Shown here in pieces: positions 40,557 to 64,000 of a stretch of DNA of 64,000 bases (the stretch's first letter is position 1; every line of letters begins with the position of its first letter). A model generated the notes under the pieces. That model was given only the letters and a program-made list of their open reading frames with translations. It did not search any database and was not told the DNA's origin. A program made the position numbers and the translations under genes. Origin of the DNA: a virus (lineage: Duplodnaviria > Caudoviricetes); the IMG/VR virus record IMGVR_UViG_3300042888_002988, positions 32,001 through 96,000 of that record; one strand, 5' to 3'.

Positions 40557-41708
40557 ATGACGACAATCCCGACGACCGGCCCGGAAGCCATCCTGGCCTA
40601 CCTGCAGTCCATGGACATCGACGCCTTGGAGCAAGAGCAGCGCGCCGCAATCGCTTCCGGCAGCAAGACCAAGCGCAGCCGGGCGGTGCGCCTGCTCAAC
40701 GCCGTCCAGGGCCTGCGGGTCAACGAGCTGACGCCGGCCGACCTGATGCTCAATTCGGTACCGGTGATTCCGCCGAAGTTCCGACCGTTCTCCGTCACTG
40801 GCAACACGTTCCTCCCGGGCGACTCGAACGAGGTGTATCGCGACCTGCTGGAGTATCGCCGCCTCTATCAGGACACCGAGAAGTCGATGGGCAAGGACGG
40901 CGCGTCCGAGGCCTACATGGACCTGGCGCGCGCAACCAGGGCTGCCTACGGCTACGGCGACAGCCCGAACCCCAAGACGCGGGCGCGGCAAGTGAAGGGG
41001 TTCTTCAAAATGGTTACCGGCACCAATCCCAAGACGTCCTTCTACCAGCAGAAGATGCTGTCCAAGCCGGTGGACAGCGTCGGCCGCGGCGTCATCGTGC
41101 CTGACGCCGACCTGGGCATGGATGACGTCGGGCTGCCCGAGGAAATGGCGTGGAAGCTGTTCGGCAACTACGTCCAGCGCAGCCTGGTTCGCTCCGGCAT
41201 GCCGGCCGCCGCTGCGCTGAAGCACCTGACAGAGCGCACGCCAATGGCCCGCAAGGCTCTGGACTACGAGATGTCCACCGAACTCGACAAGAACGGGCGC
41301 ATGGTCCCGCGCCGGCCCGTGGTGATCACCCGGTCGCCCGCATGGCACCGCACCAACACGATCGGCCAGCGTGCCCGCATTGTCGACGGCGACGCGATCC
41401 GCGTGAACACCTTCATCACTGAGGGTGCCAACGCGGACTTCGACGGCGACACGATGTCGGTTCACGTCCCGACCACCGACGAGGCGGTCAAGGATGTCAG
41501 GGAAAAAATGATGGCTTCCAGAATGCTGTGGTCGATCAAGGACCGCAGCAAGACGATGGCCAACCCCAAGCACGAGCAGATCTTGGGCCTCAGCATGGGC
41601 CAGCTGCCGGGAGGCAAGCGGCACAAGTTCGGGAACGACGACGACGCCATGGCCGCCATCGAGCGCGGCGAAGTGGACCTGAATGACGATATCGAAATCA
41701 CCAAATGA
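40557..41708 (+). CDS. rpoC: RNA polymerase beta-prime, catalytic middle fragment
   Basis: GPEAI..YL..MD, MLNSVPVIPPKFRP, K.VD.VGRGVIVPD..L..D.VGLP, TRSPAWHR, NADFDGDTMSVHVP. Confidence 0.93.
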   Translation: MTTIPTTGPEAILAYLQSMDIDALEQEQRAAIASGSKTKRSRAVRLLNAVQGLRVNELTPADLMLNSVPVIPPKFRPFSVTGNTFLPGDSNEVYRDLLEYRRLYQDTEKSMGKDGASEAYMDLARATRAAYGYGDSPNPKTRARQVKGFFKMVTGTNPKTSFYQQKMLSKPVDSVGRGVIVPDADLGMDDVGLPEEMAWKLFGNYVQRSLVRSGMPAAAALKHLTERTPMARKALDYEMSTELDKNGRMVPRRPVVITRSPAWHRTNTIGQRARIVDGDAIRVNTFITEGANADFDGDTMSVHVPTTDEAVKDVREKMMASRMLWSIKDRSKTMANPKHEQILGLSMGQLPGGKRHKFGNDDDAMAAIERGEVDLNDDIEITK

Positions 41709-42445
41709 GCCGATTACCTAATAAAAAAATCACCACCACCATCCCAGGCGTGAAATTCTGGCACAAGATGCCGCTCAACGACGGAACTTTCACGGACGGT
41801 GATAAAGACGTATTAGATTCATGCCAAGACCATTTGTGGTCGAGCTTGAATCTAAAGGGCAGCACTGTGTTGGACGCAGGCTGCTGGGACGGAGGGTTCT
41901 CGTTCTTGGCGGAGAAAGCCGGCGCAACACGGGTGGTGTCTATGGACAGGGCCGATACCAGAGGTGGAATTCCTGGGACGTCTGGTTATCACTTCCTGCA
42001 CGCCCATTACGCCAGCAAGTGCGAATACCTTGATCACAACATTTACACTTGCCACGAGGTGTTGCGCGAGCGGGAGTTCGATGTGGTCTTGGGGTATGGC
42101 ATTCTCTACCATATGAGCGATCCGCTACTATCGTTGCGCAACCTGTTTCGAGTGTGCGATAAACAGATCGTGTTCGAGGGAGTTTGGTATCGAAGCCAGA
42201 CACCACTGCTACACTTCAAGCTGTCAAAAAATATCCGCGGTGCTAAATCGGACAAATCGTTCGTGTATGCGCCGTCGATCGGATTCATGAAGGATGTGGC
42301 GGCGATCTACGGCTTCAAGCTTGCAGGCACACATTATGGTGCGCGGCGACAATCAGATAATAAATACATCCGCGGGTCATTGCTGTTCGAACGCTTCAGC
42401 TCTGCCGAGCAGGTGACGATACCCGACCGAGTGTTCCCCGTTTAA
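41705..42445 (+). CDS. Class I SAM-dependent methyltransferase (CmoB/DUF1698-like)
   Basis: TVLDAGCWDGGFSF.AEKAGA.RV, FDVVL..GILYHM.DP. Confidence 0.85.
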   Translation: MSRLPNKKITTTIPGVKFWHKMPLNDGTFTDGDKDVLDSCQDHLWSSLNLKGSTVLDAGCWDGGFSFLAEKAGATRVVSMDRADTRGGIPGTSGYHFLHAHYASKCEYLDHNIYTCHEVLREREFDVVLGYGILYHMSDPLLSLRNLFRVCDKQIVFEGVWYRSQTPLLHFKLSKNIRGAKSDKSFVYAPSIGFMKDVAAIYGFKLAGTHYGARRQSDNKYIRGSLLFERFSSAEQVTIPDRVFPV

Positions 42446-42741
42446 TGTACTACAGCCCAGCGCGCGAGGAACTACACGAATATGAATCAGCAACCCATAC
42501 CCACATGCCCATCGCAAGACTTTCCACCAAGCCATGGTGGCGCGGTATCGCCCCAGGTGATACCGTCCACTATTCGACCCAGCACGGCAGCCCAGGTAAA
42601 GGCCGGGTCGTCATGAGTCTGCCGACCCACGTCGTGCTCAACATCGGCGGCCGGCATGGCACACCCAAGCTCGTCGACGAGAACAACTACATGAGCCACA
42701 AGTCGATGCCGACGCCTAAGCCCCGAAAGAAGAAGTCATGA
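42445..42741 (+). CDS. Small SH3-like hypothetical protein
   Basis: I.PGDTV...GKGRVVM...HVVLNIGG. Confidence 0.55.
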   Translation: MYYSPAREELHEYESATHTHMPIARLSTKPWWRGIAPGDTVHYSTQHGSPGKGRVVMSLPTHVVLNIGGRHGTPKLVDENNYMSHKSMPTPKPRKKKS

Positions 42742-42935
42742 GACCTACGTCTAACCCTATGAAAACCATCCTGCGAGTCTTACTGAAGCTGATCAAGTGG
42801 CCCGTCAGGTCTGCTTGTGTCATCCGCCGCCGGGCTTATGACTTGCTGGGCATCCGTAACGGCCGTGGCGTGCACATCCTCACGGTCAACGGGCAGCCTC
42901 TTGGATTCACAAGCTCACCCCCGCCGCGCCCATGA
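42738..42935 (+). CDS. Small basic protein
   Basis: ATGA overlap. Confidence 0.5.
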   Translation: MRPTSNPMKTILRVLLKLIKWPVRSACVIRRRAYDLLGIRNGRGVHILTVNGQPLGFTSSPPPRP

Positions 42936-43195
42936 GGCGGAGAGGATTCCTGAAAGGCCTGATCGGCGGCATTGTCGCCGGTCCGGCCGCCTTGCAAGCG
43001 ATCGTTACCCAAGCTGCTCCGGTTGCCGTCGTGGCCCCGATCCCCGTGGAGGCCGCCGTGGTCTCGACCGTCGCCCAGCTGGACATCCGTGCCATCCTGA
43101 CGGCGAACATGCTGCGTGACATCCAATACGAAGAGGACAGACTTTTCCTTGAGCGCGTAGGCGCTATGACCCAACACCACTATGAACCGTCGTAA
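42932..43195 (+). CDS. Small protein with Tat-like signal
   Basis: MRRRGFLKGLIGGIVAGPAALQA. Confidence 0.6.
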   Translation: MRRRGFLKGLIGGIVAGPAALQAIVTQAAPVAVVAPIPVEAAVVSTVAQLDIRAILTANMLRDIQYEEDRLFLERVGAMTQHHYEPS

Positions 43196-43820
43196 TTTCA
43201 TCCAAACCGTCGGCGCGACCATGTCCGCCTCCCTACTCCCTGTCTCTGGTGCCAACCTGCAGGCGCTGAAGCCGAAGCAGCCCAACATCCCCATGGAGAT
43301 GTATCGCCACTGGCACCCCGGGGTGATCCTCAAGCGCGTCGTTGAGCTGGCGCAAGAACATCCCGACGGCTGGCTGTCAGCCCACAGCTACCGGAAGATT
43401 CAGGGCGGCGACGGTTGGTGCGCCATCAGTGGCGGCTCCAGCACAGCCAGCATGCTGCGGGACATAGGGTCCACGATGGAGGACATTGCTGCCGTCGTAG
43501 GGATCCCAGAGTGCCTCCGCGGCGCCGATTTGTCGCAGATCGATCCGGCGGTGCAGCTGCACCACATCACCCGCGGACAGAGCATCCACGAGCACGTCTA
43601 CCCAGGCGAGACGCATATCTACTGGACTGTCGGCGGCCCATTCCTCGTGCTCTGCTACGTCCTACCTGACAAAAGTCGATTCATCTTCAAGGTGGGCGAG
43701 CGCGGAGATGACCAGCACAAGCTGCGACTGGATACCCCGGAGCACCAGCTTGAGTGGGTGGACGCCTACCGGGTCGAACTGCGTGGCACCTTGGCCGAAA
43801 TGGCCCTGAACTACCCGTAA
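43182..43820 (+). CDS. Protein with Tat-like signal
   Basis: MNRRNFIQTVGATMSASLLPVSGA. Confidence 0.6.
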   Translation: MNRRNFIQTVGATMSASLLPVSGANLQALKPKQPNIPMEMYRHWHPGVILKRVVELAQEHPDGWLSAHSYRKIQGGDGWCAISGGSSTASMLRDIGSTMEDIAAVVGIPECLRGADLSQIDPAVQLHHITRGQSIHEHVYPGETHIYWTVGGPFLVLCYVLPDKSRFIFKVGERGDDQHKLRLDTPEHQLEWVDAYRVELRGTLAEMALNYP

Positions 43821-43881
43821 GTGAAGATTGCCAAACCTGGCGACGCGTTCTACCGTGCGGAGCACTCACTGCAAACCGCAC

Positions 43882-44175
43882 ATGAACAGAACATCACGCC
43901 AACTGCTTTCCAAGACCGCTGAGGTCTTGAACCGCCACGTCGCCGAGGGTAGCCCCCTCGGTAAGGAACTCGCTGCCGGCTCGGAAGTCGGACGAACCAC
44001 GGTAGTTGCCATCAACGAGATCCTCCGCGAAGCCGCGGAAGGCGCCACCCTGGTGTGCGCCACGGAAGTCGATGGCACCCTGCTGGGCTTTGTCGCCCGT
44101 GCCGACGTGACGCTTCCCTCGCTGGTCCCGCCTCCCCCGATGCAGGTCCCGCCGAGCCCCGAAGACGTGAAGTGA
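43882..44175 (+). CDS. Hypothetical protein
   Basis: AC-rich leader; ATG 43882. Confidence 0.55.
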   Translation: MNRTSRQLLSKTAEVLNRHVAEGSPLGKELAAGSEVGRTTVVAINEILREAAEGATLVCATEVDGTLLGFVARADVTLPSLVPPPPMQVPPSPEDVK

Positions 44176-44263
44176 AATTTTCCCGCACAGAGTGAGCGGA
44201 AATCCCGATACATTGAGAGGCGCCACAAAACGAGCGTAGAAAGAGGATTATCACACACACTCT

Positions 44264-44295
44264 TCCGGTCCCTTTCACGAGGGGCCGGATTTTTT
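44264..44295 (+). terminator. Intrinsic terminator ending the early array
   Basis: TCCGGTCCCT-TTCACG-AGGGGCCGGA followed by T6. Confidence 0.75.
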
Positions 44296-44379
44296 ACCTC
44301 CAGCGGAGCGGTGTGTTTCTACTCGACTACGGGGCTGTGTGCATTAAGATACGGGCGTCCTTCACGCGGAACCTGACCT

Positions 44380-45429
44380 ATGCCCACCATCACTTTAGAG
44401 CCCGGCGGCGCACGTCCGCCCACACCCGAGGAACAGGGTTTCATTCGCTCCGCCATTGGCGTGTCTACCCTATACCGTAGTCAGGCCGCTGGAGTTCCCA
44501 CGCCACTCGATCCCGTGCCACAGTCCGTGGGGCAGTGGCTGCGGCGCGAGACTGCGGTTGTCGGGGAGTATCAATGGTACCAGTGGAACGGCACTGCGTG
44601 GGTGTTTGTTCGGCTAGACAATGCATCACCGGGTGGCGGGCCCGAGGTATTGACGCGTGCCGCCAACGCCGCGTATTACGCTTTCGCCGGTCACACATCA
44701 CTGACCGTTACAGGGATCGGCGGCGCGGGGACGCTGACCCTGGCGCCGGATGGCGCAGGATGGACTGACGGAGATTTTACGATCGGTTTGGAGCATTACG
44801 GAAGTTCGCGCTACAGATTTAGGCTCGAGAATCTCGCATTGGATGTCGCCGGTTACTCCGTGGAATTGACTAGCGGATCTCCGTCGCCAGTCGGACTGGA
44901 ATTCACGCTGAGCAACGGGACAGGAAGGGTAGTTGTCAGCGGCAACGTAAACGCCAACGTCATTCAAATCTTCCCGCCCGGCAGCGACGTCGGGCAACTG
45001 CTCTACGTTTCCAACGAAGTTGGTCCCGGCTCCTGGTATCAGTGGGACGGCACTACGTGGTATTACGTCCGCACCGATGACGAGGTGCCGACTGTCGGCC
45101 CCTACAAGCAAAAGGTATTGGAGGCCCCATGGAATTCCGCCTCCCCTTGCATCCTCAGTCGCGCGCGAGGTGAGTCGCAAGTCGGCACGACAAGCTCCAA
45201 TGTTTTACTGGGACTTCCAACCGACATGCTGGACGGGCAAACTCTGCTGCTGGACATCATCGCGTCCGCCGCGATAACGCTGAATTTCACCGGCTATCAG
45301 ATGCCTGCCGCGGTGTCCGGTCTCTTGCCGCTGTCCATCGCCTCCAATCGCGCTGTTCGCGTCACCATCCTACGGATTGGTGGACGTTTCTGGGTGCGCG
45401 GCATTGATGGTCCGATCAACCTCACCTAA
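44380..45429 (+). CDS. Tail fibre/virion appendage-like protein
   Basis: Beta-rich, G/T/S-rich; duplicated WYQW[ND]GT.W..VR.D motif; C-terminal LP.D..DGQT..L domain. Confidence 0.55.
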   Translation: MPTITLEPGGARPPTPEEQGFIRSAIGVSTLYRSQAAGVPTPLDPVPQSVGQWLRRETAVVGEYQWYQWNGTAWVFVRLDNASPGGGPEVLTRAANAAYYAFAGHTSLTVTGIGGAGTLTLAPDGAGWTDGDFTIGLEHYGSSRYRFRLENLALDVAGYSVELTSGSPSPVGLEFTLSNGTGRVVVSGNVNANVIQIFPPGSDVGQLLYVSNEVGPGSWYQWDGTTWYYVRTDDEVPTVGPYKQKVLEAPWNSASPCILSRARGESQVGTTSSNVLLGLPTDMLDGQTLLLDIIASAAITLNFTGYQMPAAVSGLLPLSIASNRAVRVTILRIGGRFWVRGIDGPINLT

Positions 45430-45470
45430 TCACGACCACCGTGCGACCGTCCGCCGTATACGCCAGGAAC

Positions 45471-48272
45471 ATGCTGATGCTGCACAAGCAGGCAGCCTTT
45501 GAAGGCTGCTCCGAAGAGCAGCTGCGATGCCTCGGCGACGCCTTCGGGCTCGGCCCTTACGCCAAGCCCTACGTGCCGAATTACCGTGAGTGCCCCAAGT
45601 GCCACGAGAAAAAGGCGCGGGTAAAAGAGGTCCACGCCGACACCGGGATGGATGACTTTGAGCTGAAGTGCGACGCCTGCGGTGCGTGGAGCGACATTGA
45701 GCCAGAGAAGTCGGCCTTCCTTGGGGCCGGCAAGCTGATGGGCAACGGCAAGGTTGTAAAAGACTTCATCCGTCATATGCGCGGGATGGATATCCCCATT
45801 AACCGGGTGCGTCCTGCGAATCCCGCAGCTATTCTGGCCAACACCAGCCACCTACCGGTCGGCGCGTCGCAGCACAGCTTCTCCAAGGTGTATCCTGGTT
45901 TGCGTAGGACAACCGACCTACCAATGAACACCAGCAGTTTGGATGTCGGCAAAGGGGTGCCTAGAGTGAATCTACAGATGCGCGATGGTAAATTCTTCCA
46001 GACACCTGGGGTGCAAGGCGGCACTAACCCGTCACCGATCGCGTCGATGTTCCACGAGGGAGGGCACGCCATGCACCAGCGCGAACTGCTGCGCGTCGCC
46101 AAGCAATCGCCCGAGCGCTTTGGCGGTGTGCCGCACTGGAAAACACTGGAGTATGGCAATCATTTCATCCCCGGGCAACCGGGGTTGTCGACCGTGCTGG
46201 ACGAGATCGGCGCCAACAACGCCGCCTTGCAGTTTGGGCAGCAGGCGGGGGCGACACCGGAGGCTATGAACTTCTATCGAGCAGCCAGACAGAACTCGTT
46301 CAATACATACAAGGGTGCGGTTGAAAACACCCCGCTGGCTCAGCAGGTGATGCAGCGCGGCGGCAAGGGCTACACCGATGACCTCAGAACCGTGAATCTC
46401 TACGAAGGGTTCGGTAAGTCAGCGAGCGCTGAGCTCGTCTTGCGAAAGAAGGCCTCAATCGCACCGAAGGACCTACGCTACTGGGACGATGTCAACGATG
46501 CGGTGGCTAAAAAAATCAGCGCCCTGACTCCCGAGGAGCAAGCTCAAGCTGCCGCTGGGCAGGTGTCGGTGATCGGCTCCTGTGGGCACCCGATACGCCA
46601 GGGCAACAACGGCGTGACCGTCGAGATCGGCAAGGAGTGCTTTACCTGCATGCAGGCCAACGCCCCGCTGTTGAAGTCCGGCAGCATACTGGAGCTGTTC
46701 GGAGGCGTCGAGCTCGAGAAATACGCGGTGGTCAAGCAGGATGCTGACACCGGCAAATGGATCCTGTGGGCCCGGGACGGCAAACGCAAGCTGGGCACGC
46801 ATGATACGCCGGATGAGGCCTACAAGCAGGAGTATGCGATCCAGAAAGCACAGGAGCGCAAGAAGTCTGCTTCGGCAGAAGAGACAGCGCAGGATCTCAT
46901 GAAGCGCCCGTGCTGCGGCTCAGGCTGCGATAACTGCCCCTACTACCCGCGCTACCAGAAGGGCAACACCGAGGTGCGCGCCGAATTCAAGAAGTCAGCC
47001 TCGTCGCGATCCGCAGAGATCCAGCAGCTGCTGAACGATTCCGACATTCCGGCTGACGTCTATTTCTACACGGACGGTAAGGGGCGCGCCACCGTATGCC
47101 TCGGCGACTGGCACGAAGATCCTGTGCCCGACATCGCCATACAGTTCGGGCGTGCCAACTGGGATCAGTGGGAAGATCCGGATGACACCGAGATCGGCAA
47201 GCCATCGTGGGCAACCGCTACCCTCAGCAAGCGCCAGGAGAAGGCTGCAGCCATCGCCGCCCACATCCGCCGAGCCCGCAACGTCACCCACACTGACCCC
47301 ACGCCGGCTCAGGCCCACGAGGGTAACTATCGCAAGGGTGAGTTCACCATGCACGGCATGACCATCAAGCTTGAAAATCCCAAGGGCACCACGCGCCGCG
47401 GTTACAAGGACGGGAAGGAGATCTGGGCGCGCGTCATGCAAGCCGACTACGGCTACTTCAAAGGCACTGAAGCGGTGGACGGCGATGCCATTGACTGTTT
47501 CGTCGGCCCGAATCCAGACAGCGAGATGGTGGTGGCGATCGACCAATACCGGGGCGATACCTTCGACGAGACCAAGTTTGTCCTGGGGGTCGACTCCCAG
47601 GACGAGGGCTCCAAACTTTACCTGGCACACTACCCGAAGGGATGGCGGCTCGGCCCCGTCTCGACCACTACCGTGCAGCAGCTCAAGGCGTGGCTGAAGG
47701 CCGGCAAGCACAAGGTGCCGTTCAAGGGGCAGCTGGTGAAAGCGGCTTCGATTAGCGGGCTGCTGCGTTCTGCGCTCTCCGCTCGGTCCTTGAAGCCATT
47801 CGCCACCAACGCGCCCATGTCCCGGCGTGTGTTCTTTGACAAGTCCATCAGGAAGGCTGCGCCGATGATGTTGCCGGACACCCCCATGGTGCAGGCTGGC
47901 TTCAAGGGGCTCGCCGCTGCCACCAACAAGGATGTCGTGAGCAAGGTAGGCGACACGATCGGCGCTGTCGGGAAGATCGGCCAACCGCACACTCCGCAAG
48001 CATTGCCGAAGATGGTTGCTGCGGGCGGTGCAAATCCGTCTCGAAATTTCACGGACGCAGCAGAGCGCATGATACCCGCAGTGCCCAAAGCTCCCGCAGA
48101 GCTGCCAGGCGTGGCGGCGATGGCCATGCTTCCGGGAACCTACTCACGAAGGTCGTTGCTGCAACGGTTTCTGCTCGCCAGCGCGACCGACGCCAACACG
48201 CTTCCCACGCTGGCTCGGTTTGGAGCTGGCGTAACAAGCGGGGCAGGCAATGTGGCCAATATGCTGGCATGA
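45471..48272 (+). CDS. Modular KxA-punctuated protein: Zn ribbon, zincin, Cys cluster, InPase-like domain
   Basis: CPKC..CDAC; FHEGGH...E; CCGSGCDNCPY; GNYRKG...LENPKG..R.G..MQADYGYF.GTE..DGDAID.FVG; start 45471 preferred over GTG 45441. Confidence 0.8.
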   Translation: MLMLHKQAAFEGCSEEQLRCLGDAFGLGPYAKPYVPNYRECPKCHEKKARVKEVHADTGMDDFELKCDACGAWSDIEPEKSAFLGAGKLMGNGKVVKDFIRHMRGMDIPINRVRPANPAAILANTSHLPVGASQHSFSKVYPGLRRTTDLPMNTSSLDVGKGVPRVNLQMRDGKFFQTPGVQGGTNPSPIASMFHEGGHAMHQRELLRVAKQSPERFGGVPHWKTLEYGNHFIPGQPGLSTVLDEIGANNAALQFGQQAGATPEAMNFYRAARQNSFNTYKGAVENTPLAQQVMQRGGKGYTDDLRTVNLYEGFGKSASAELVLRKKASIAPKDLRYWDDVNDAVAKKISALTPEEQAQAAAGQVSVIGSCGHPIRQGNNGVTVEIGKECFTCMQANAPLLKSGSILELFGGVELEKYAVVKQDADTGKWILWARDGKRKLGTHDTPDEAYKQEYAIQKAQERKKSASAEETAQDLMKRPCCGSGCDNCPYYPRYQKGNTEVRAEFKKSASSRSAEIQQLLNDSDIPADVYFYTDGKGRATVCLGDWHEDPVPDIAIQFGRANWDQWEDPDDTEIGKPSWATATLSKRQEKAAAIAAHIRRARNVTHTDPTPAQAHEGNYRKGEFTMHGMTIKLENPKGTTRRGYKDGKEIWARVMQADYGYFKGTEAVDGDAIDCFVGPNPDSEMVVAIDQYRGDTFDETKFVLGVDSQDEGSKLYLAHYPKGWRLGPVSTTTVQQLKAWLKAGKHKVPFKGQLVKAASISGLLRSALSARSLKPFATNAPMSRRVFFDKSIRKAAPMMLPDTPMVQAGFKGLAAATNKDVVSKVGDTIGAVGKIGQPHTPQALPKMVAAGGANPSRNFTDAAERMIPAVPKAPAELPGVAAMAMLPGTYSRRSLLQRFLLASATDANTLPTLARFGAGVTSGAGNVANMLA

Positions 48273-48297
48273 CCTGATCGCCAGGTGCCTGGGTGTA

Positions 48298-48337
48298 TGC
48301 AAGTCCATGACCGCCGGTGTCATAAGGATTTGCTATG
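48298..48337 (+). promoter_or_regulatory. Conserved promoter cassette copy 1
   Basis: TGCAAG-17-CATAAG-GATTTGCT-ATG. Confidence 0.7.
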
Positions 48338-48964
48338 AGTACTACCAAGCCAACACCAACAGTCCGCCCCGCAACGACGGGGAAGGCTCAGCCCGTATCT
48401 GAAACCCCAACCTTCACGAAGGACAGCGAGATGCCTCTCTCCTACAGCGAGAAGTCTCCGTTGCTTGACGCGAAGCCGCTGCCGAAGCAGATGGAAGATC
48501 TGGATGATACCCAGTTCGAAAACCTGCAGGAGCAGCTGGCGCACGAGGCGTTCGTCCGCTCTCCAGAACATCGTGGTGACATGATGTTCCAAGAGCTGAT
48601 GCACGAAAAAGACCTGCTGACCCGCAAGCAGGTCCACAACGCAAAGGACGCGGTCCGCCTGATCTCGGGCGCGATCACGACCTTTGCGGATCACAAAGAC
48701 TCGCGGGCCAAGATCCGTCAAGACGACGGACCAGTCATCAACCATGCGCGTGAGCGTGTGGAGATGACCACCACGGTGAGATCGCTGCGCTTCGTGCGCG
48801 GTCGCTACACCGTCTGGGTATCGATTGCCGAAGACGAGGACGACGCCCGCTGTGGTGTCGTCATCAAGCGCCGCTGGCGTGACCCCATCCACATCACGGC
48901 GGAAGAGTTCCCCACGGTGTTGGAAAAGCTCGCCTGGCACTTCAGCCTGGCGGGGAGGATCTGA
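48335..48964 (+). CDS. Hypothetical protein
   Basis: ATG within the promoter cassette. Confidence 0.65.
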   Translation: MSTTKPTPTVRPATTGKAQPVSETPTFTKDSEMPLSYSEKSPLLDAKPLPKQMEDLDDTQFENLQEQLAHEAFVRSPEHRGDMMFQELMHEKDLLTRKQVHNAKDAVRLISGAITTFADHKDSRAKIRQDDGPVINHARERVEMTTTVRSLRFVRGRYTVWVSIAEDEDDARCGVVIKRRWRDPIHITAEEFPTVLEKLAWHFSLAGRI

Positions 48965-48973
48965 TCGGAATCA

Positions 48974-49014
48974 CACCGGGCCGGCTGACAACCGGCCCGG
49001 TGTTCACCTTTTTT
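48974..49014 (+). terminator. Terminator-like hairpin
   Basis: CACCGGGCCGG-CTGACAA-CCGGCCCGGTG then TTCACCTTTTTT. Confidence 0.6.
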
Positions 49015-49020
49015 ACCATC

Positions 49021-49350
49021 ATGGAAAAAGAATACATCAAGGCCATGTTCGGCCAGCACGCCGTCCACGCGGCGTTCAACTACATCGTGCAGGAGTCCGG
49101 CACCAAAGATGAAGACCGTGGTCTCATCGCCGGGAACACCAGCTTCGTTGAGGCCATGAGCTTCGGCGGAGTGAACCACGGTATCCACACGCTCGTGCTG
49201 TGCGACGTCGTCATCCGCCCCAGGCTGGTGATCGCGTCGAGCCACCTGAAGGGATCGGGAGCCAGCGGGCTGTTCAAGGGCATGGCCCTGGCGACGGTCA
49301 AGCCATGGCTTGATCAAGGCAAGATCATCATCAACAATATGCCCGGATGA
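49021..49350 (+). CDS. Hypothetical protein
   Basis: ORF in the accessory island. Confidence 0.6.
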   Translation: MEKEYIKAMFGQHAVHAAFNYIVQESGTKDEDRGLIAGNTSFVEAMSFGGVNHGIHTLVLCDVVIRPRLVIASSHLKGSGASGLFKGMALATVKPWLDQGKIIINNMPG

Positions 49351-51387: not shown

Positions 51388-51578
51388 AGACACTGCCGCT
51401 ATGGCCTGGCGCCCACCTGACCGAGGACAACCTCTGCGGCATTGCCGAGGAGATCGTAAAGGATCCAACTTGGAAGATCAGCCCGGCGTTCGGTGCCGGG
51501 TGCTGTCGGCCTCTATTCAATGAGGCTCGGGAGCGTATCCTGCGCGAGCGTGCAATTCTGGCGTCTGGCGGGTCATAA
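51384..51578 (+). CDS. Small hypothetical protein
   Basis: GTGA overlap; 3' end contains the promoter cassette. Confidence 0.5.
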   Translation: MKTLPLWPGAHLTEDNLCGIAEEIVKDPTWKISPAFGAGCCRPLFNEARERILRERAILASGGS

Positions 51579-52883: not shown

Positions 52884-52935
52884 TCCACAGCACGCACTGC
52901 CCGGGGTGACCTGGGCAGTGTGGTAGCTTTTTTAC

Positions 52936-58256: not shown

Positions 58257-58296
58257 TGCAATTTCGGTAGGGTCGGTGTCATAAAGAATTGCTATG
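58257..58296 (+). promoter_or_regulatory. Conserved promoter cassette copy 5
   Basis: TGCAAT-17-CATAAA-GAATTGCT-ATG. Confidence 0.7.
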
Positions 58297-58644
58297 GACT
58301 TGGGTATAATACCTTCAGTTCTAACCAACACTAACATCAACAACACCATGAAATCGTTTATCACCAGCATCATCGGAAACACAGTCGGAGCAGTCGGATC
58401 ATTCACCGGAGGCATCATGATGGCGACCGGCATAAATCCCGGTTACGTCGGCGACCAACTGCACCGCGCGGGAAATGAATTCGCCGACGGCATGCACAAG
58501 CAGTCGCAAGCACTCGCAGAGCAGGAGGCCGTCGAGGCCGCCGATCGCGAGGCCAAGCGCCACGAAGAACGCTGCTTGGAGATCGCAATGGCCGCGGCGG
58601 CCGAACAGGCTCGCCACGACAAGGCGACGGGCGTCGCAGCCTGA
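58294..58644 (+). CDS. Small protein with N-terminal hydrophobic segment (alternative start 58348)
   Basis: Gly-rich hydrophobic helix followed by a charged helix. Confidence 0.6.
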   Translation: MDLGIIPSVLTNTNINNTMKSFITSIIGNTVGAVGSFTGGIMMATGINPGYVGDQLHRAGNEFADGMHKQSQALAEQEAVEAADREAKRHEERCLEIAMAAAAEQARHDKATGVAA

Positions 58645-58649
58645 GCAAC

Positions 58650-58699
58650 TCGGACCCTGGGCGTGGAGGCAACTCCGCGCCCAGGTGCTCCGATTTTTT
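58650..58699 (+). terminator. Intrinsic terminator
   Basis: TCGGA..CCTGGGCGTGGAG-GCAA-CTCCGCGCCCAGG..TCCGA followed by T6. Confidence 0.75.
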
Positions 58700-58701
58700 A
58701 C

Positions 58702-58730
58702 TTGGCGCGCCCATGAAACGATTCGACAGT
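58702..58730 (+). promoter_or_regulatory. Putative leaderless promoter
   Basis: TTGGCG-17-GACAGT-8-ATG. Confidence 0.45.
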
Positions 58731-58738
58731 CCCACTCC

Positions 58739-59098
58739 ATGGAGGACAGCCACGCGGTAGATATCCTGCTTGAGGTGCTTACCGTATCCGGCGGCCGTCG
58801 CTGCGTGAACTTTCGGCGCGACAATACTTCGACGCTCGATCCGTCAACGAGGCCTCCCGAATGGGGCGACGAAATCACGCAGCACTGGAAGCAGCAGCTC
58901 ACACCCCAGCAGCTCGCTATCTATCACACGGAGCTGCTGCGGCGCGCGGAAGAGTTTCTGAAATTCATGGACGCCAACGTCGGACCCACGGAGGAGTTCC
59001 CCTTGGTGATACAGGCAGAGACGGCAGAGACGATGGAAGTATTTCGCAGTTACCTGCATCGATTGCGGACGCCGGTGAATTTTTTACTCGAAATATGA
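58739..59098 (+). CDS. Hypothetical protein
   Basis: ATG 58739 downstream of the promoter. Confidence 0.55.
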   Translation: MEDSHAVDILLEVLTVSGGRRCVNFRRDNTSTLDPSTRPPEWGDEITQHWKQQLTPQQLAIYHTELLRRAEEFLKFMDANVGPTEEFPLVIQAETAETMEVFRSYLHRLRTPVNFLLEI

Positions 59099-59102
59099 CG
59101 AC

Positions 59103-59131
59103 TTGCCTCCCGGGTCTAATTCTGGCACAGT
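59103..59131 (+). promoter_or_regulatory. Putative leaderless promoter
   Basis: TTGCCT-17-CACAGT-6-ATG. Confidence 0.45.
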
Positions 59132-59137
59132 CTCCCC

Positions 59138-59695
59138 ATGGCCGACTCACTCACCACCCTGAAAACCCGTCTCGCTAACCTGCGCCAGGAGCGGAACGAA
59201 ATTGCCTTGATTCAGAAGGAAGCCTTCATGGCTGCCCCTCCGATGCCAGGTGGTGGCGGAATGCCGCCGCAAGGAATGCCCCCAGGCATGGATCCCAGCA
59301 TGATGGGCGGAATGCCTCCGCAGGGTATGCCGCCGGGCATGGATCCCAGCATGATGGGCGGAATGCCTCCGCAGGGTATGCCGCCGGGCATGGACCCCAG
59401 CATGATGGGCGGAATGCCCCCGCAGGGAATGCCTGTGGATCCGGCTACCGGCATGCCGATGGATCCCAACGCAATGGGCGGACAGCCGCAGCCGCCGGCC
59501 TCCCCGCTCACACCGGAAATGCTCGAGGAGCTGATCGGTGTCGTTGAGCAACTCGCGGCTGGTCAGGAGAAATCCGAGCAGGCTTTGCAGCAGATGGCTC
59601 AGCAGCAGGAGGAGATCATGGGGCAATTCGAGCAGATGCAGCAGCAGCTCGCTCAAATGTTCTCAGGTCCGCAGCCGGGCGCAGGAGGTATGTGA
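59138..59695 (+). CDS. Pro/Gly/Met-repeat protein with KEAF motif and C-terminal coiled coil
   Basis: GGMPPQGMPPGMDPSMM repeats; Q-rich helix. Confidence 0.75.
   Translation: MADSLTTLKTRLANLRQERNEIALIQKEAFMAAPPMPGGGGMPPQGMPPGMDPSMMGGMPPQGMPPGMDPSMMGGMPPQGMPPGMDPSMMGGMPPQGMPVDPATGMPMDPNAMGGQPQPPASPLTPEMLEELIGVVEQLAAGQEKSEQALQQMAQQQEEIMGQFEQMQQQLAQMFSGPQPGAGGM
59255..59431 (+). repeat. In-frame 51-bp tandem repeat, about 3.5 copies
   Basis: ggcggaatgcc.ccgca.gg.atgcc.cc.ggcatgga.cccagcatgatg unit. Confidence 0.9.
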
Positions 59696-59937
59696 TGCCA
59701 GTCCGACTTCGACAACTCGACGGGACGGTGAAAGTCGTCGACAAACTTGAGTCGATCGAGGTGACCGACTCCGAAGGCTTGCTGGCGGTGGTCGTCTTCA
59801 CCAATCGCCGCGACGTCATCCAGGCACTGATCCCGGGTGACCCTATCTTCACAGCTTACTGCCGCGCTCACGGCCTCGGCGCGGCTCGGGTGCATCGCCA
59901 CGAACAGACGCCAGTCAAAACCAATCTCTCCGACTGA
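59692..59937 (+). CDS. Small hypothetical protein
   Basis: GTGA overlap. Confidence 0.65.
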   Translation: MMPVRLRQLDGTVKVVDKLESIEVTDSEGLLAVVVFTNRRDVIQALIPGDPIFTAYCRAHGLGAARVHRHEQTPVKTNLSD

Positions 59938-59941
59938 AGCC

Positions 59942-60292
59942 ATGGACGACGAACCTGCAGTCACCAAGCCTACCACCGTGAAGCAACACGTGGACCACTG
60001 GAAGTGGTTGGTCGGCGTGCTCGGTGGTCTGCTGCTCCTCATGGAGGGATTCGGCTGGGTAGAAGGCCGCATCGAGAAACGGGTCGAAGAGCGGGTGCTG
60101 ACCGCCACATCGATCTCCCGCTTGGACAACTACGGTAAGGAATCCAAAACCTGGATGGATGGGCGTATCAACACCCTGACTGCCGAAGTGGACGCACTGC
60201 GTCGGGAACTTGGTATCCTGCGCTTAGACGTGCGAACGAACGCCACGACAATCCGCAGCGCCCCCGAGTCGGCCCCCGCGTCGCCTAAGTGA
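59942..60292 (+). CDS. Single-TM coiled-coil protein (lysis-associated)
   Basis: WKWLVGVLGGLLLLMEGFGW then coiled coil. Confidence 0.6.
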   Translation: MDDEPAVTKPTTVKQHVDHWKWLVGVLGGLLLLMEGFGWVEGRIEKRVEERVLTATSISRLDNYGKESKTWMDGRINTLTAEVDALRRELGILRLDVRTNATTIRSAPESAPASPK

Positions 60293-60333
60293 CCACACTT
60301 GACTGGACCTCCAAAAAATGGCAGGTTAAGGGC

Positions 60334-61035
60334 GTGAGAAGCAAACTCCTAATCATCGGGCTATGCCTAGTCATACCCTGGAGCACCGGGTGCCACACGC
60401 CTCCGCGTGCTGTGCCTGTTGTGCCGGTCGTGACTGCTGCACCGCGGCAGGTCTCCGCCAAGTCACCGCTGAGTGAGGCTCGGGCTGCCACCGTCGAGTC
60501 GAATCGTCGTGTCGATGCCGCCCGCAACAAGGTCGATGTCTCGGTCGGTAATGTCGAACGCTACCGCGACGCCGAGTATGCCGAGCTGCACGCCCTGGTT
60601 ACCCGGGTCAAGGCGAAGGGCTCCATCACGACTGCGGAGCTGGAGGAACTCATCACGCGGGTGCTGGCACAGAAAGGTCAGCTCGACACGCTGCTCGCCC
60701 GCCTCAAGCAGGTGCAGGACGAACTCTACGTGTCGTGGGAGCTGCGCCAGCAGATCGATTCTAAGCTCACCGAGGCCCTAGCCAGGGTCGCCGCAAAGGA
60801 CAGCGAGGCGGACATGCTTCGACAGCAGCTGGCTGACCAGCAGCAGACATCGAAGGCGCTGGAGCAGAATGCCCAGACCAATTTGGAGTCGGCTGTGAAA
60901 TCGCAGTCCGCCGCCGCACACATGAAGGGTCAGCGCGACCTCGTCCTCAAAGTTCTCATCGGGGTATCCATACTCGCCATGCTGTCGCTGATAGGCAACT
61001 ATCTCCAGTTCCGCAGGGGTCTACTACCGTTCTGA
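60334..61035 (+). CDS. Lipoprotein with C-terminal TM, unimolecular spanin-like (alternative start 60289)
   Basis: MRSKLLIIGLCLVIPWSTG-C; long coiled coil; C-terminal VLIGVSILAMLSLIGNYL. Confidence 0.6.
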   Translation: MRSKLLIIGLCLVIPWSTGCHTPPRAVPVVPVVTAAPRQVSAKSPLSEARAATVESNRRVDAARNKVDVSVGNVERYRDAEYAELHALVTRVKAKGSITTAELEELITRVLAQKGQLDTLLARLKQVQDELYVSWELRQQIDSKLTEALARVAAKDSEADMLRQQLADQQQTSKALEQNAQTNLESAVKSQSAAAHMKGQRDLVLKVLIGVSILAMLSLIGNYLQFRRGLLPF

Positions 61036-61070
61036 TCAAAGCAAACCGCCTACATCAACACACCAATACC

Positions 61071-61421
61071 ATGCAGATAATCAAGACCATCAAAACCAAC
61101 TGGCGCGACGTCGTCATCGGGATCGCCCTCACTCTCGGCTTGGCCCTCGGGGCCGACATCCTGGAGCGCATGGCCACCACCGACGACGGTAAGGTCTGGC
61201 TCACCAACGTCGTCACGTCCCTCCGCGGACTTGCGGCCTTCGCTGGTGCCAACCTTGCGGCTTTCTTTATGATCGCCGTGGCCTGGCCGACGCTGAATCA
61301 ATACAGTAACGATAGCTTCAGCTTCGGCTGGAACTCCCTGAGCAACTCTCAGCGATTCCTAGCCTTCCTCGCTGTTGCCATCGGCTACCTCATTGCCGCC
61401 TCCCTGTGCTTCGCCCCATAA
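61071..61421 (+). CDS. Holin-like 3-TM protein
   Basis: Three hydrophobic helices; directly upstream of the endolysin. Confidence 0.6.
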   Translation: MQIIKTIKTNWRDVVIGIALTLGLALGADILERMATTDDGKVWLTNVVTSLRGLAAFAGANLAAFFMIAVAWPTLNQYSNDSFSFGWNSLSNSQRFLAFLAVAIGYLIAASLCFAP

Positions 61422-61439
61422 CCCGCAAGTATCATCGTC

Positions 61440-62129
61440 ATGAAGTTCCTTGCGCTGATCGTGGCTATGGCATCGTTTCCCACATCGGGAGGCGCTGACG
61501 CGGTGTATATGCGGGCCGAGCCGCTGGCCATCTCCAAGGAAGGCTACAACCTGATCCTGAAGCATGAGGTCGGCGGCGGCGCTTACTACTACTCGCGCTT
61601 CCTGGCTCGGCCCTGCTGGCCGGGAGGCGCGTCTGGCGTTACGATCGGCGTGGGATACGACCTGGGATACAATACCCGCAGCCAGATCGCCGCGGACTGG
61701 AAATCACTGTCCCCGGACATCATCGCTAGGCTGCAGTCCGTGGCTGGCGTGAAGGGCGCGTCAGCGAGTCGTTTGGCTCCCACGCTGCGCTCCATTTCGA
61801 TCCCGTGGGACATCGCAGAGAAAGTCTATCGTGAGCGCACCATTCCCAGGTTCGCTCGTCTCACTGAGGGCGCTTACCGTGGTACCGCCACCATGCACCC
61901 GCACGCCCAGAGTGCCATGCTCTCCTGGGTGTTTAACCGCGGCGAGGGTATCTCCTCGTCGTCGCGTGATACTGAAAAACGCGCCATGCGGTCGGACATC
62001 CCGACACGTGTGAAGCTGTTGCCAGGCCACTTCCGAGCGTCCAAGCGCATCTGGGTGGGTCGCGGGCTTGACGGCTTGCTGCGACGTCGTGAAGATGAGG
62101 CGCGCCTCATCGAATCCATCTGGAACTAA
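61440..62129 (+). CDS. Lysozyme-like endolysin (GH24/pesticin-like) with N-terminal signal peptide
   Basis: LILKHEVG...PGGASGVTIGVGYDLG; A..SWVFNRG; GLLRRREDEA. Confidence 0.85.
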   Translation: MKFLALIVAMASFPTSGGADAVYMRAEPLAISKEGYNLILKHEVGGGAYYYSRFLARPCWPGGASGVTIGVGYDLGYNTRSQIAADWKSLSPDIIARLQSVAGVKGASASRLAPTLRSISIPWDIAEKVYRERTIPRFARLTEGAYRGTATMHPHAQSAMLSWVFNRGEGISSSSRDTEKRAMRSDIPTRVKLLPGHFRASKRIWVGRGLDGLLRRREDEARLIESIWN

Positions 62130-62131
62130 TC

Positions 62132-62160
62132 TTGATCGCATGGTCAGCATCGTCTACCGT
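62132..62160 (+). promoter_or_regulatory. Sigma70-like promoter
   Basis: TTGATC-17-TACCGT. Confidence 0.45.
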
Positions 62161-62206
62161 CATGGCAACCCCACGTAACACTTCCAAAGCCAAGAAACCG
62201 CACGCA

Positions 62207-62860
62207 ATGTCCTCTGAACAAGTCTCGGAAAGTAACACCCATCACGAGCGTAGGTTTGCGCAAATTGACCGTGATATTTTCAGCGTCAAAACGGACGTCG
62301 GCGTGCTGCAGGCGGACGTTAAAACCCTGGCGTCGGGCCAGGTCGCCCTGCAGGAATCGCAAGACCGGGGGTTCCGCGACGTCAAGGATACGCTAGTTGC
62401 CAAGAGCCAAGAACAACCAAAAGTCAGCGTGGCAATGCTGATATCCATCCTCGGTGTCATGGTGACCGTTGTGGTGGTCGGGGTGGGTGCATTCTGGTCC
62501 GTCGTAGTGCTGCTGGCGGACCCGATCCGCAACGAAGTGCGCGAGCACAAGTTGTCGACGCTCAACAATAACAAGGAGATCGCATTACTGGATGAGCGCG
62601 CCAGACAGATGCAATCGAACCTCGAGATCCGCCTCCGGCAAGTGGAAGACCATGAGCTAACTCGGTACGAACAGCAGGCGGCGCGCATGAGTGAGCTGGC
62701 TGCGACATTGAAGGAGTTTCAAACGCACGCGGTCGAGAATGCGCGGCTGGAGGGACGGCTGACAGCCCTGGAAGAGGTGCGTCGCCTCAACGATCAGCGC
62801 ACATGTGACCGTATCGGAAATCTCGAGAAGCTCCACCAGACACCCGGCGCAACTCCATGA
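62207..62860 (+). CDS. Coiled-coil membrane protein (alternative start 62162)
   Basis: Coiled coil, long TM segment, coiled coil. Confidence 0.7.
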   Translation: MSSEQVSESNTHHERRFAQIDRDIFSVKTDVGVLQADVKTLASGQVALQESQDRGFRDVKDTLVAKSQEQPKVSVAMLISILGVMVTVVVVGVGAFWSVVVLLADPIRNEVREHKLSTLNNNKEIALLDERARQMQSNLEIRLRQVEDHELTRYEQQAARMSELAATLKEFQTHAVENARLEGRLTALEEVRRLNDQRTCDRIGNLEKLHQTPGATP

Positions 62861-62889
62861 TTGATCATCGGACTCTTTTCCCTTAGAAT
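62861..62889 (+). promoter_or_regulatory. Leaderless sigma70-like promoter
   Basis: TTGATC-17-TAGAAT-6-ATG. Confidence 0.7.
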
Positions 62890-62895
62890 ACCCTC

Positions 62896-63177
62896 ATGCA
62901 ATACAACGGCACCGCACAAACGATACAGCTCACTGGCTTGGACCAGGGGCACGAGGTTACGGTCATCATCACCGGGGCCACTGCTATCGTCAACTTGGAG
63001 TTCAAGCACGGCACCGAAGACATCTGGCGTCCGCACCCGAATTTCACCGCCGTGGCAGCTGCCACCGTCAACCTTATGACGTTCCGTATTCTGTCCGGCG
63101 TCATGCGCATCCGTTTCAACACGGTGCCCAGCACCTACGAATTGACGACCGTCTTCAGCGCGGAAGCCTCTTTCTAA
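62896..63177 (+). CDS. Small beta-rich putative virion protein
   Basis: 93 aa with alternating hydrophobic beta pattern. Confidence 0.6.
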   Translation: MQYNGTAQTIQLTGLDQGHEVTVIITGATAIVNLEFKHGTEDIWRPHPNFTAVAAATVNLMTFRILSGVMRIRFNTVPSTYELTTVFSAEASF

Positions 63178-63515
63178 GAAAGCGTCCCAGCAGCTCGGAT
63201 CGCATCCTCGGCAGCAACAAGCGCACGCAATGTGCGCCACATGTCCGAGGCCGTCTCGTGCCCCTTCTCGGTTAGGTAGACCTTCGTGACGCGCTTGTCC
63301 CGCTCCGGGAAGTGCTCAACGAGCAGGCCCTGGCTGGCGAGTTTCTGCTTGGCCATCGTCACCGCAGAGGGCTGCGCGCCAGTGGCCTTCGTGATGTCGG
63401 CAACGTGCCAGCCGGCGAGTTGCTTGTTGGCCATCAGCAACAGCATGAGCTGCGGCAGCTTGATGAGCGCGGAGTCGACGATTTCGCTGAGCGTGTCGGT
63501 GTGACGTGTTTCCAT
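63174..63515 (-). CDS. MarR family transcriptional regulator
   Basis: HVADITKATGAQPSAVTMAKQKLASQGLL...DKRVTKVYLTEKG. Confidence 0.85.
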   Translation of the reverse strand: METRHTDTLSEIVDSALIKLPQLMLLLMANKQLAGWHVADITKATGAQPSAVTMAKQKLASQGLLVEHFPERDKRVTKVYLTEKGHETASDMWRTLRALVAAEDAIRAAGTLS

Positions 63516-63529
63516 GGGAGTGCGCCCAT

Positions 63530-63589
63530 ACTTGCGCGCACAATCCGCACGTAGTCAAGCTTGCTGTGGCGTAACGGATGCACTATGGT
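63530..63589. promoter_or_regulatory. Back-to-back divergent promoters (MarR / RNAP fragment)
   Basis: Plus: TTGCTG(63561)-17-TATGGT-7-ATG(63597). Minus: TTGACT(63558)-17-GCAAGT. Confidence 0.55.
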
Positions 63590-63596
63590 GACGCTC

Positions 63597-64000
63597 ATGC
63601 GAGCCGTTGACTTTGCTGTCTCACGAATTTTACCCAGCGACATGCGCCAGGAGACCTATGACCTTGGCAAGAACGGCATGGCGAAGATCATGTCGGACGT
63701 CGCCCTGCGTTACCCGGATCAGTTTCCCCAGATCGTGAAGCAGCTCGGTGACCTGGGCCGCCGCGCCAGCTGGTTGCAGGGTTACACCACCGGCCCCGAC
63801 GACACCAAGGGAGTCGTGGACACGGCCAGCTACTACGCCAAGATGGACGCGGAGCTGGACCGCCTGCGCAAGGACAAGGTCTCTCCGGATGAATTCGAGG
63901 AACGTCGTGCTGAAATCCTGACTCGCTACTCGGACCTGATCGAGCGCGATACTATGACGGCGGCGATGAAGAATCGTAACGCCTTTGCGCTTGCTGTCAG
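63597..64000 (+). CDS. rpoC: RNA polymerase beta-prime, downstream fragment (RpoC2-like start), 3'-truncated
   Basis: LGKNGMAKIM...LGDLG..A...GYTTGPDD (cf. LGKKAISKML...GASVGIDD); ends at NAFALAV where an SGARG motif would be expected next; absent from the ORF track because it runs off the window. Confidence 0.75.
   Translation, partial: MRAVDFAVSRILPSDMRQETYDLGKNGMAKIMSDVALRYPDQFPQIVKQLGDLGRRASWLQGYTTGPDDTKGVVDTASYYAKMDAELDRLRKDKVSPDEFEERRAEILTRYSDLIERDTMTAAMKNRNAFALAV

Follow-up and report, generated by a model that had tools for sequence, protein, structure and literature searches.

The window considered here, that is, the whole stretch of DNA that was analysed, comprises 64,000 nucleotides (bases 32001-96000) of the IMG/VR record IMGVR_UViG_3300042888_002988, a lake phage of the Caudoviricetes whose record totals 200,158 bp with a CheckV completeness of 100%. 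The window has a GC content of about 0.60 and harbors on its + strand, 21.9 kb apart, two genes for segments of the beta-prime subunit of a bacterial-type RNA polymerase (RNAP): b'N2, the middle piece, at 40557..41708, and b'C, the C-terminal piece, the 5' part of which lies at 63585..64000. These genes, and the other pieces of the same enzyme elsewhere in the genome, are the subject of this report; positions refer to the window unless given as genome positions.

The b'N2 gene encodes a protein of 383 aa (P0001) with the clamp core and the catalytic double-psi barrel of beta-prime. Its N-terminal sequence is MTTIPTTGPEAILAYLQSMD / TGPEAILAYLQSMD and its C-terminal sequence ...AIERGEVDLNDDIEITK, followed by the stop codon, / ...ERGEVDLNDDIEITK, the whole being equivalent to about residues 178-553 of Salmonella/E. 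coli RpoC. The NADFDGD catalytic motif is found in the translation, Pfam RNA_pol_Rpb1_2 matches residues 170-319 (E 7.7e-24), the Rpb1_1 match is weak, phmmer pairs residues 7-345 with Salmonella RpoC 180-510, and bacterial beta-prime chains of the PDB match with E about 1e-40. At E <= 1e-10, a search of 5.8 billion proteins retrieved 138 metagenomic clusters of b'N2 homologues; most are standalone proteins of ~365-400 aa with 83-41% identity, on contigs of up to 217 kb. Both ends of the gene are bridged by lake/freshwater metagenome contigs from other studies, two of these records with 0 differences, so that the standalone gene is not an artefact of one assembly; a further independent contig spans 40500-44424.

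The b'C gene (P0004) lies in a frame open from 63561, with candidate ATG starts at 63585 and 63597, and continues to genome 97450 (window-equivalent 65450), giving a protein of ~617-621 aa when the frame is followed into the whole genome. The start of the homologue in one relative (L111) aligns with the residue of ATG 63597. The protein begins at the equivalent of RpoC ~568-572 (TTVGRAIL motif) and contains DLGKNGMAKIM...GYTTGPDD; beyond the window edge it shows SGARG, a bridge-helix-like stretch YGARTAVVSTKKATAKGGDL, a trigger-loop-like stretch IGEPIVQGALNVKHNAG and, in its C-terminal modules, a C...C..C zinc site. Pfam matches are Rpb1_5 (E 1.1e-10) and Rpb1_4 (E 0.014), and phmmer aligns the protein with RpoC 706-943 and 1152-1270. 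The initial annotation, made from the window, had recognised both genes as beta-prime segments, and the motifs, the Pfam matches and the RpoC alignments, including those past the window edge, bear this out.

Five pieces of one RNA polymerase

When Salmonella RpoB and RpoC were compared by phmmer with all open reading frames (ORFs) of the genome, five non-overlapping pieces were recovered, on one strand, in N-to-C order and over a span of ~102 kb, about half of the genome. The first and last 181 bases of the record (genome 1-181 and 199978-200158) are identical at 180/181 positions, which joins the ends of the record: although IMG/VR lists it as linear, no terminal repeats found, it probably represents either a circular assembly or a short terminal redundancy. 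The beta subunit starts with bN1 (genome 195161-196654, 497 aa, matching RpoB 68-242) and bN2 (genome 196651-197313, 220 aa, RpoB 412-575), and is completed by a protein of 637 aa (P0003, genome 10294-12207), residues 19-499 of which match RpoB 650-1296 and in which a beta barrel with a KxxxRxGxKG-type stretch can be read. This third gene is a chimera, called bC::b'N1 here, as its product ends in the first part of beta-prime; b'N2 and b'C follow.

The genome-wide Pfam search found exactly one Rpb1_2 barrel and one Rpb2_6 barrel, which argues for one polymerase and not two. No genome match was obtained by Pfam for alpha (RNA_pol_A_bac) or omega (Rpb6), controls being matched in 14/14 genomes. 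All five pieces have clean start and stop codons and a coding-type GC content at third codon positions (GC3) of 0.75-0.88; the catalytic motifs are intact, and the pieces are conserved as separate genes of equal length at 41-99% identity in >100 clusters, with invariant core residues. On a relative with a 1494-aa ORF for beta and the beta-prime N-terminal half (L008), the pieces tile residues 35-236, 291-485, 498-1118 and 1123-1491, followed by the b'C gene; no segment is lost, and the sole extra is the tail of bN1. These last ~230 residues of bN1, unmatched in both RpoB and the fused relatives, form an extra domain at the first beta break. The bN1 and bN2 genes overlap by ATGA.

The beta-prime N-terminus was located through alignment with fused relatives and a family profile, Pfam Rpb1_1 and phmmer finding no significant N-terminal segment anywhere in the genome. 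The last ~115 residues of P0003 (...RLAPFTDKDLD...LTPVQGGLFDSRLLNGERWGRVKLPRPVINPAMEE...LGITKAELEEVLAG) align with the beta-prime N-terminus when set against the Salmonella RpoB C-terminus and RpoC N-terminus, 17 IMG/VR relatives and gp206 of Salmonella phage Arash. Within the aligned residues ~520-637, the motif GGLFD corresponds to DGLFCARIFG (RpoC 54-63) and WGRVKLPRP, part of a W-G-R-V-K-L-P..NP motif, to MGHIELASP (RpoC 102). The Cys4 zinc ribbon that lies between them in bacteria (E. coli C70, C72, C85, C88) is deleted in this tail and in every family member aligned, only 6 residues and no Cys separating GGLFD from W-G-R-V-K-L in P0003. A profile of 25 such tails searched against the PDB gave 27/27 matches to beta-prime N-termini (E 0.19-0.55, residues ~10-55), and a second, sub-threshold stretch picks up past the ribbon. 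Homologues of bC::b'N1 form 251 clusters in the 5.8-billion-protein search, mostly of 635-650 aa, with G580, L581, F582, L597 and P604 invariant in the beta-prime stub. The co-folding proposed initially was carried out for P0003 500-637 with P0001, using family alignments: ipSAE reached 0.77 vs 0.00 for the best control, its mark being attained by 58/80 solved complexes and 2/110 mismatched pairs, with at least 64% of contacts in common between runs, a partner pLDDT of at least 70, and a predicted pairing of tail strand 592-603 with P0001 63-70.

The beta-prime subunit is thus in three parts with the first outside the window, as had been proposed from the window; the expectation that this part would be a third gene with a Zn-binding clamp failed, since by alignment it is a ~115-residue stub joined to the C-terminal half of beta and devoid of the zinc-binding site. 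Natural rpoB-rpoC fusions exist in Helicobacter and Wolbachia, where full-length subunits with a zinc ribbon work with alpha and omega. There too the beta C-terminus is joined to the beta-prime N-terminus; here, on the contrary, only a short stub is attached to half of beta.

Two further observations concern b'N2 homologues. Longer ones (499-601 aa) were inspected for a re-attached beta-prime N-terminus and none was found, their extensions being mutually unrelated. One of 539 aa (P0078, L112 10001-11620) carries a 160-aa N-terminal extension with CPEC...CPDC, a Cys4 ribbon-like motif immediately ahead of the TGPEAI start, which might be a secondary replacement of the lost zinc ribbon.

The cut between b'N1 and b'N2 falls between RpoC ~172 and ~178, in a loop that varies in length in the family and holds a 30-residue insert in Arash. 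That between b'N2 and b'C lies after the RVKVRI equivalent (RpoC 547-552) and before TTVGRAIL (RpoC 572), the same aligned position as in Arash, Vibrio phage D69 and the IMG/VR two-gene forms, in which one protein ends in I-x-I-x and the next starts with M..T.G..L...LP. The similarity of this second break to the cyanobacterial/plastid rpoC1-rpoC2 boundary had been noticed in the initial annotation and was confirmed: cyanobacterial gamma 189-557 of 626 aligns with P0001 8-380 and rpoC2 12-348 with P0004 26-338, while ~69 residues of gamma reach past the P0001 end, so that the cyanobacterial cut probably lies ~10-25 aligned residues downstream of the phage cut, near but not identical to it. Both fall in the same inter-domain stretch shortly past the barrel; gamma, however, keeps the TTVGR motif, which the phage cut precedes, and the cyanobacterial genes are adjacent with the zinc ribbon kept, whereas the phage genes are dispersed and the ribbon is lost. 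In phiKZ-type phages, the beta-prime of both the virion and the non-virion enzyme is reported to be cut after the barrel, coinciding with the cyanobacterial cut, and the core of the virion enzyme is made up of at least five polypeptides, its beta-prime being in three parts (PMC7598289). As these cuts fall there too, the region after the barrel appears as a recurrent breakpoint, and a three-part beta-prime has a precedent.

Taken together, it is highly probable that the two window genes encode parts 2 and 3 of beta-prime in the sole RNAP of the phage, an enzyme of bacterial type with a core of five polypeptides. As judged from the sequence comparisons, the five-gene version is real and conserved, and it probably derives from a fused beta/beta-prime gene. 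The five pieces would assemble non-covalently into one enzyme, each cut presumably lying in a variable loop, and the retained covalent link between beta and beta-prime may aid assembly without alpha. The phage sigma-like protein described below would direct initiation. Successive fission and gene relocation of the fused ancestor may have produced the layout, and the enzyme would probably be packaged in the virion, as in Arash.

Relatives and the history of the cuts

Among GenBank phages, tblastn detected Salmonella phage Arash and Vibrio phages D69, D148 and D181 at ~30% identity, which belong to the same family: beta runs straight into a ribbon-less beta-prime N-terminus, as in this phage. 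In Arash, gp206 (1525 aa) corresponds to beta plus the part of beta-prime that ends with the barrel, gp216 (606 aa) to the remainder, and D69 is organized likewise. The two Arash genes are 4.8 kb apart, whereas the five of this phage extend over ~102 kb, with two extra cuts in beta and one in beta-prime at ~172/178. The Arash polymerase genes stand among the portal and other structural genes, and in this phage head genes follow b'C (head protease, genome 108255; major head protein, genome 112034). The Arash annotation includes sigma-factor genes, and this phage has a sigma-like one.

In 80 IMG/VR relatives the five segments are colinear, mostly within one ORF of ~2,000-2,140 aa. Such single-ORF RNAPs (L021-L087, in uncultured phages of ~150-210 kb) share the ribbon deletion and form one polypeptide and a separate clade, vs five chains here; the literature search returned no paper on them. 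One of them (L083 6700-12600, on a 37% GC contig) has 10 in-frame TGA and no other stops, which suggests a TGA-recoded phage. The closest IMG/VR relatives encode beta and the beta-prime N-terminal half in an ORF of ~1,500 aa, with a separate b'C gene 1.3-8.5 kb downstream; over all two-gene relatives, the gap between the corresponding polymerase genes is just 0.6-8.5 kb, vs 21.9 kb in this phage. L014 shows extra breaks between adjacent, overlapping frames; as possible sequencing frameshifts, they were left out of the analysis.

Nearer to this phage, bC::b'N1 and b'N2 are separate genes at only 1.3-1.8 kb from each other in relatives with 47-62% identity to b'N2. In L110 and L109 (62% and 54%), bC::b'N1 is followed by four small ORFs and b'N2 (gap of 1.3-1.6 kb), and in L111 (47%) by two ORFs, b'N2, 9 kb and b'C. 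L108 (73%) shows an isolated b'N2 with flanking genes as in this phage. These four relatives lie on contigs of 193, 208, 215 and 217 kb, and the split clade has no known representative in culture. The genes after b'N2 in L110 are located between bC and b'N2 in this phage, so the 60-kb separation of these two involved a rearrangement and not insertion alone. Synteny with the whole relatives G003 and G004, as assessed by tblastn, amounts to 12-18 shared genes, too few for a reconstruction of gene order.

A tree of the b'N2 region (about 370 columns, quick search, rooted on Salmonella as the one bacterial outgroup) recovered the family as a clade of 76 rows, apart from bacteria and from phages with separate beta-prime, with a Shimodaira-Hasegawa-like approximate likelihood ratio test (SH-aLRT) value of 99, which supplies the phylogeny suggested in the initial annotation. 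RHph_Y65 and Va2, phages whose full-length beta-prime is a gene of its own, branch outside the fused/split clade. Standalone b'N2 proteins, including that of this phage, form a clade (SH-aLRT 100) that is sister to the IMG/VR two-gene forms (joint SH-aLRT 99), fused forms constitute one clade (95), and Arash with D69 is the third branch of a basal trichotomy.

Several points weigh against the reading of the five genes as one assembled enzyme derived from a fused ancestor. The E-values of the tail profile are weak by themselves, the co-fold may pass owing to likeness to, or memory of, solved bacterial RNAPs, and the absence of alpha and omega is that of matches to Pfam profiles alone. We infer assembly of the five proteins, and transcription by them, from their genes only, and virion packaging would be extrapolated from a relative that is only 30% identical. 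With ~370 columns and a basal trichotomy, the tree is also compatible with a two-gene ancestor followed by re-fusion. Finally, two proteins with an uncut b'N1/b'N2 site, P0221 and P0225, are nested among the split ones, so this site was cut more than once or re-joined.

The opposite history, in which the multi-gene state is ancestral and the 2,100-aa ORFs arose by fusion, is the alternative that survives best, although we regard it as unlikely. Same-site two-gene forms occur on 2/3 branches of the trichotomy formed by Arash/D69, the fused clade and the rest, and Iyer et al. considered that the split RNAPs of phiKZ type were not derived by splitting cellular homologues (PMC7824862). However, the beta-to-beta-prime junction and the ribbon deletion are common to all members, so the fusion of beta with beta-prime predates the b'N1/b'N2 cut; moreover, the clade of five-piece and standalone b'N2 forms is nested (SH-aLRT 100), intermediates with less dispersal are more distant in sequence, and the extra cuts are in variable loops.

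A layout of three independent beta-prime genes, with a zinc-binding N-terminal clamp gene elsewhere, seems very improbable. A very divergent clamp gene could be overlooked, given the silence of Rpb1_1 and phmmer on the N-terminal segment; yet the N-terminal motifs are at the end of the beta C-terminal ORF, colinear with fused relatives, the ribbon has been lost family-wide, the P0003 tail is predicted to dock on b'N2, and the tiling leaves no segment uncovered from P0003 residue 631 to P0001 residue 7 (L008 1118 to 1123).

Decay of a non-functional gene or a mis-assembled chimeric contig would be conceivable for a metagenomic assembly, but we give it minimal credence: start and stop codons are clean, GC3 is of coding type, the catalytic motifs are intact, each piece is conserved in >100 clusters, contigs from other studies reproduce the gene boundaries, and the 73%-identical relative has the same neighbourhood. 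Hardly better founded would be the idea that trans-splicing of split inteins, or a process acting on RNA, rejoins the expressed pieces into fewer mature chains. Mobile splicing elements do frequent these genes, LAGLIDADG inteins being found at three sites of bC::b'N1 in relatives, but the termini at the breaks are ordinary (...ALADVMQK and a stop, then MTTIPTTGPEA; ...DDIEITK and a stop, then M(VTLM)RAVDF), lacking any extension of intein size, a Cys/Ser/Thr at +1 and a terminal His-Asn, and the piece lengths equal the homologous segments of fused proteins. The insertions themselves measure 315-410 aa (P0131, P0148, P0152, P0154, P0172, P0240 and others) and lie behind P0003 residues ~133, ~353 and ~443-456; LAGLIDADG and Pfam intein-splicing domains occur in several of them. 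One such bC insertion is found in the 73%-identical relative and none in this phage.

The least credible alternative is that the pieces stem from two polymerases, virion and non-virion, as encoded in two split sets by phiKZ/AR9-type jumbo phages (PMC7598289), for the 200-kb record holds one Rpb1_2 and one Rpb2_6, the pieces are non-overlapping in RpoB/RpoC coordinates, the 60 PDB matches listed, out of 112 and 88 under the E-value limit, include no phiKZ/AR9 chain, and a sigma-like gene accompanies the pieces; the initial annotation was right to favor one enzyme over two two-part ones. The phiKZ/AR9 RNAPs likewise consist of four or five polypeptides, lack alpha and omega and are cut after the beta-prime barrel. 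They differ in comprising two very divergent sets without a sigma homologue, promoters being recognized by gp68- or gp226-like subunits, whereas this phage has one set, a sigma-like gene instead and bacterial matches at E 1e-40; nor does the review describe a beta-C/beta-prime-N chimeric chain in them. That the layout is unlike phiKZ, as was inferred initially, holds for the bacterial-like sequence, the sigma-like gene and the fused-gene relatives; it does not hold for the three-part beta-prime, which is known from phiKZ-type phages.

In the literature on fused or split polymerases of the Arash-like family, only the Arash genome paper was found; it does not describe this layout, labelling gp206 and gp216 as beta and beta-prime subunits with no fusion described (PMC10585845), and a family of fused or Arash-like enzymes is absent from the jumbo-phage RNAP reviews of 2020, 2021 and 2026. 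The mReC phages are also large tailed metagenomic phages with bacterial-like beta and beta-prime, but the survey that defined them kept matches of >=800 aa and tabulated separate genes of ~900-1,400 aa (Weinheimer and Aylward, 2020; PMC7481178). The largest piece in this phage has 637 aa; since the filter demanded at least 800 aa, fragmented forms were excluded from that survey, and RNAP-encoding phages are undercounted wherever filters for long beta/beta-prime matches miss such phages.

Packaging has been demonstrated in Arash, where gp206 and gp216 are among the most-detected proteins of purified virions by mass spectrometry (PMC10585845), whereas the phage studied here, ~30% identical, is known from genes alone. 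It is a speculative, rather doubtful possibility that bC::b'N1 is the hub of an alpha-less, sigma-dependent five-chain enzyme that would be packaged in the capsid and ejected with the DNA, its cutting being adaptive and not neutral. If true, a 240-kDa single chain would have been cut to 25-70 kDa for packaging, ejection or staged expression, which would explain why the cuts are kept across the whole freshwater clade and why one promoter-like motif is found in at least 4/6 polymerase-related transcription units.

Multisubunit RNAPs are highly conserved, and few natural cuts of their large subunits are known (cyanobacteria/plastids, archaea, phiKZ-type phages). This clade provides a graded natural series within one family, from one chain to two, three and five genes, with mapped cut sites, a beta/beta-prime chimera, a lost ribbon, no alpha or omega and a kept sigma-like factor. 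Such a series reveals break-tolerant loops and the minimal needs for assembly of a bacterial-type core, and may serve RNAP engineering, the design of split enzymes and the debate on ancient versus derived phage RNAPs.

Sigma-like gene, promoter-like signals and neighbouring genes

The sigma-like gene (genome 141112-141840) encodes 242 aa with region 3 and a C-terminal helix-turn-helix (HTH). Genome scans yielded nothing with Sigma70_r4 and, with Sigma70_r2, a match of E 0.035 at this gene; whole-protein scans made after the genome scans had pointed to it confirmed it through Sigma70_r3 (E 1.1e-7, which passes the Pfam cut-off), the HTH and phrog_351, 'RNA polymerase sigma factor' (E 2e-10). 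The gene is also conserved in the distant relatives G003 and G004, and its product is likely the initiation factor of the phage polymerase. Another protein of 248 aa (60289-61035) has a weak match to Sigma70 region 1.1 (E 0.0036), under the Pfam cut-off, that may be due to chance.

Leaderless sigma70-like promoters had been proposed for each polymerase piece. Ahead of b'N2, the -10-like element GTAGATT (40544..40550, + strand) stands 6 nt before the ATG, with no Shine-Dalgarno-like sequence, and is a candidate for the promoter of an mRNA with little or no leader. Comparable elements precede b'N2 in relatives: GGTAGAGT-N6-ATG (L108), CTAGGAT-N6-GTG (L109) and GTAGAAG-N6-ATG (L112). Similarly, the GNAT gene is preceded in this phage, L110 and L109 by TTTACC-N17-TAAGAT, TAAGCT or TACGCT, then N6-ATG. 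For b'C, the weak -35/-10-like pair TTGCTG-N17-TATGGT (63561..63589, + strand) ends 7 nt before ATG 63597, in a 69-nt gap after an opposite-strand gene called from GC3 (63174-63515); being under the scanner threshold and not conserved in L111, it can at most be a putative promoter. A scan with the sigma70 consensus was negative ahead of 40557, and its matches around 63,000-64,000 were weak and unrelated. Among the listed data sets that contain b'N2, none is a usable RNA run. A 16-nt motif, GTA-N7-CCNC-RTG, ends on the starts of b'N2, bN1, the GNAT/bC operon and the sigma-like gene; it was built post hoc from these four sites, so that its count of 4 vs 0.1 expected is circular. Leaderless promoters for the polymerase pieces are thus plausible: the -10-like hexamers 6-7 nt before the starts, recurring in relatives, speak for the proposal, while its consensus sigma70 character is not borne out at 40557.

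The genome has ~194 genes by GC3-based calling, 172/194 of them on the + strand. Between b'N2 and b'C, at 41705..63584, lie ~30 non-polymerase genes over 21.9 kb according to the ORF list, Pfam and PHROGs, two ORFs of 969 and 804 aa having no family match in Pfam or PHROGs. The first gene of this block (41705-42445) is SAM-methyltransferase-like, with Pfam E-values of 7e-5 to 7e-3, every match being under the cut-offs; its start overlaps the b'N2 stop as ATGA, and the two genes are probably translationally coupled. At 45441-48272, a protein of 943 aa contains an InPase domain (PF18823, E 1.7e-39), as in packaged polyvalent, DarB-like and minor-head proteins; PF18823 is also found in the 532-aa b'N2 homologue P0058, apparently within its ~167-aa C-terminal extension. 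A gene of unassigned function on the + strand (59138..59695, 185 aa) has a homologue in G003, a distant relative of the two-gene type (38% identity and E 3e-9 by tblastn, G003rc 95926-96324), where it is likewise flanked by the beta-prime N and C genes (92904 and 96802). Downstream of b'C, the product of genome 112034-113017 (327 aa) matches phrog_2522, major head protein, with E 2.5e-7; a genome scan with PF07068 (Gp23-type capsid) gave no match, but the control genomes were equally silent.

Finally, a conserved element of ~40 nt, TGCAA(T/A/G)-N17-CATAATG(A/G)(T/A)TT(G/A)CT-ATG, ends on the ATG of seven + strand genes, at window positions 48335, 51588, 52251 and 52599 and at genome positions 7091, 158468 and 187972. 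With the TGCAA part required, there are 5 matches vs 0.03 expected. The element resembles a class of phage promoters for mRNAs with little or no leader and differs from the motif found at the polymerase genes.

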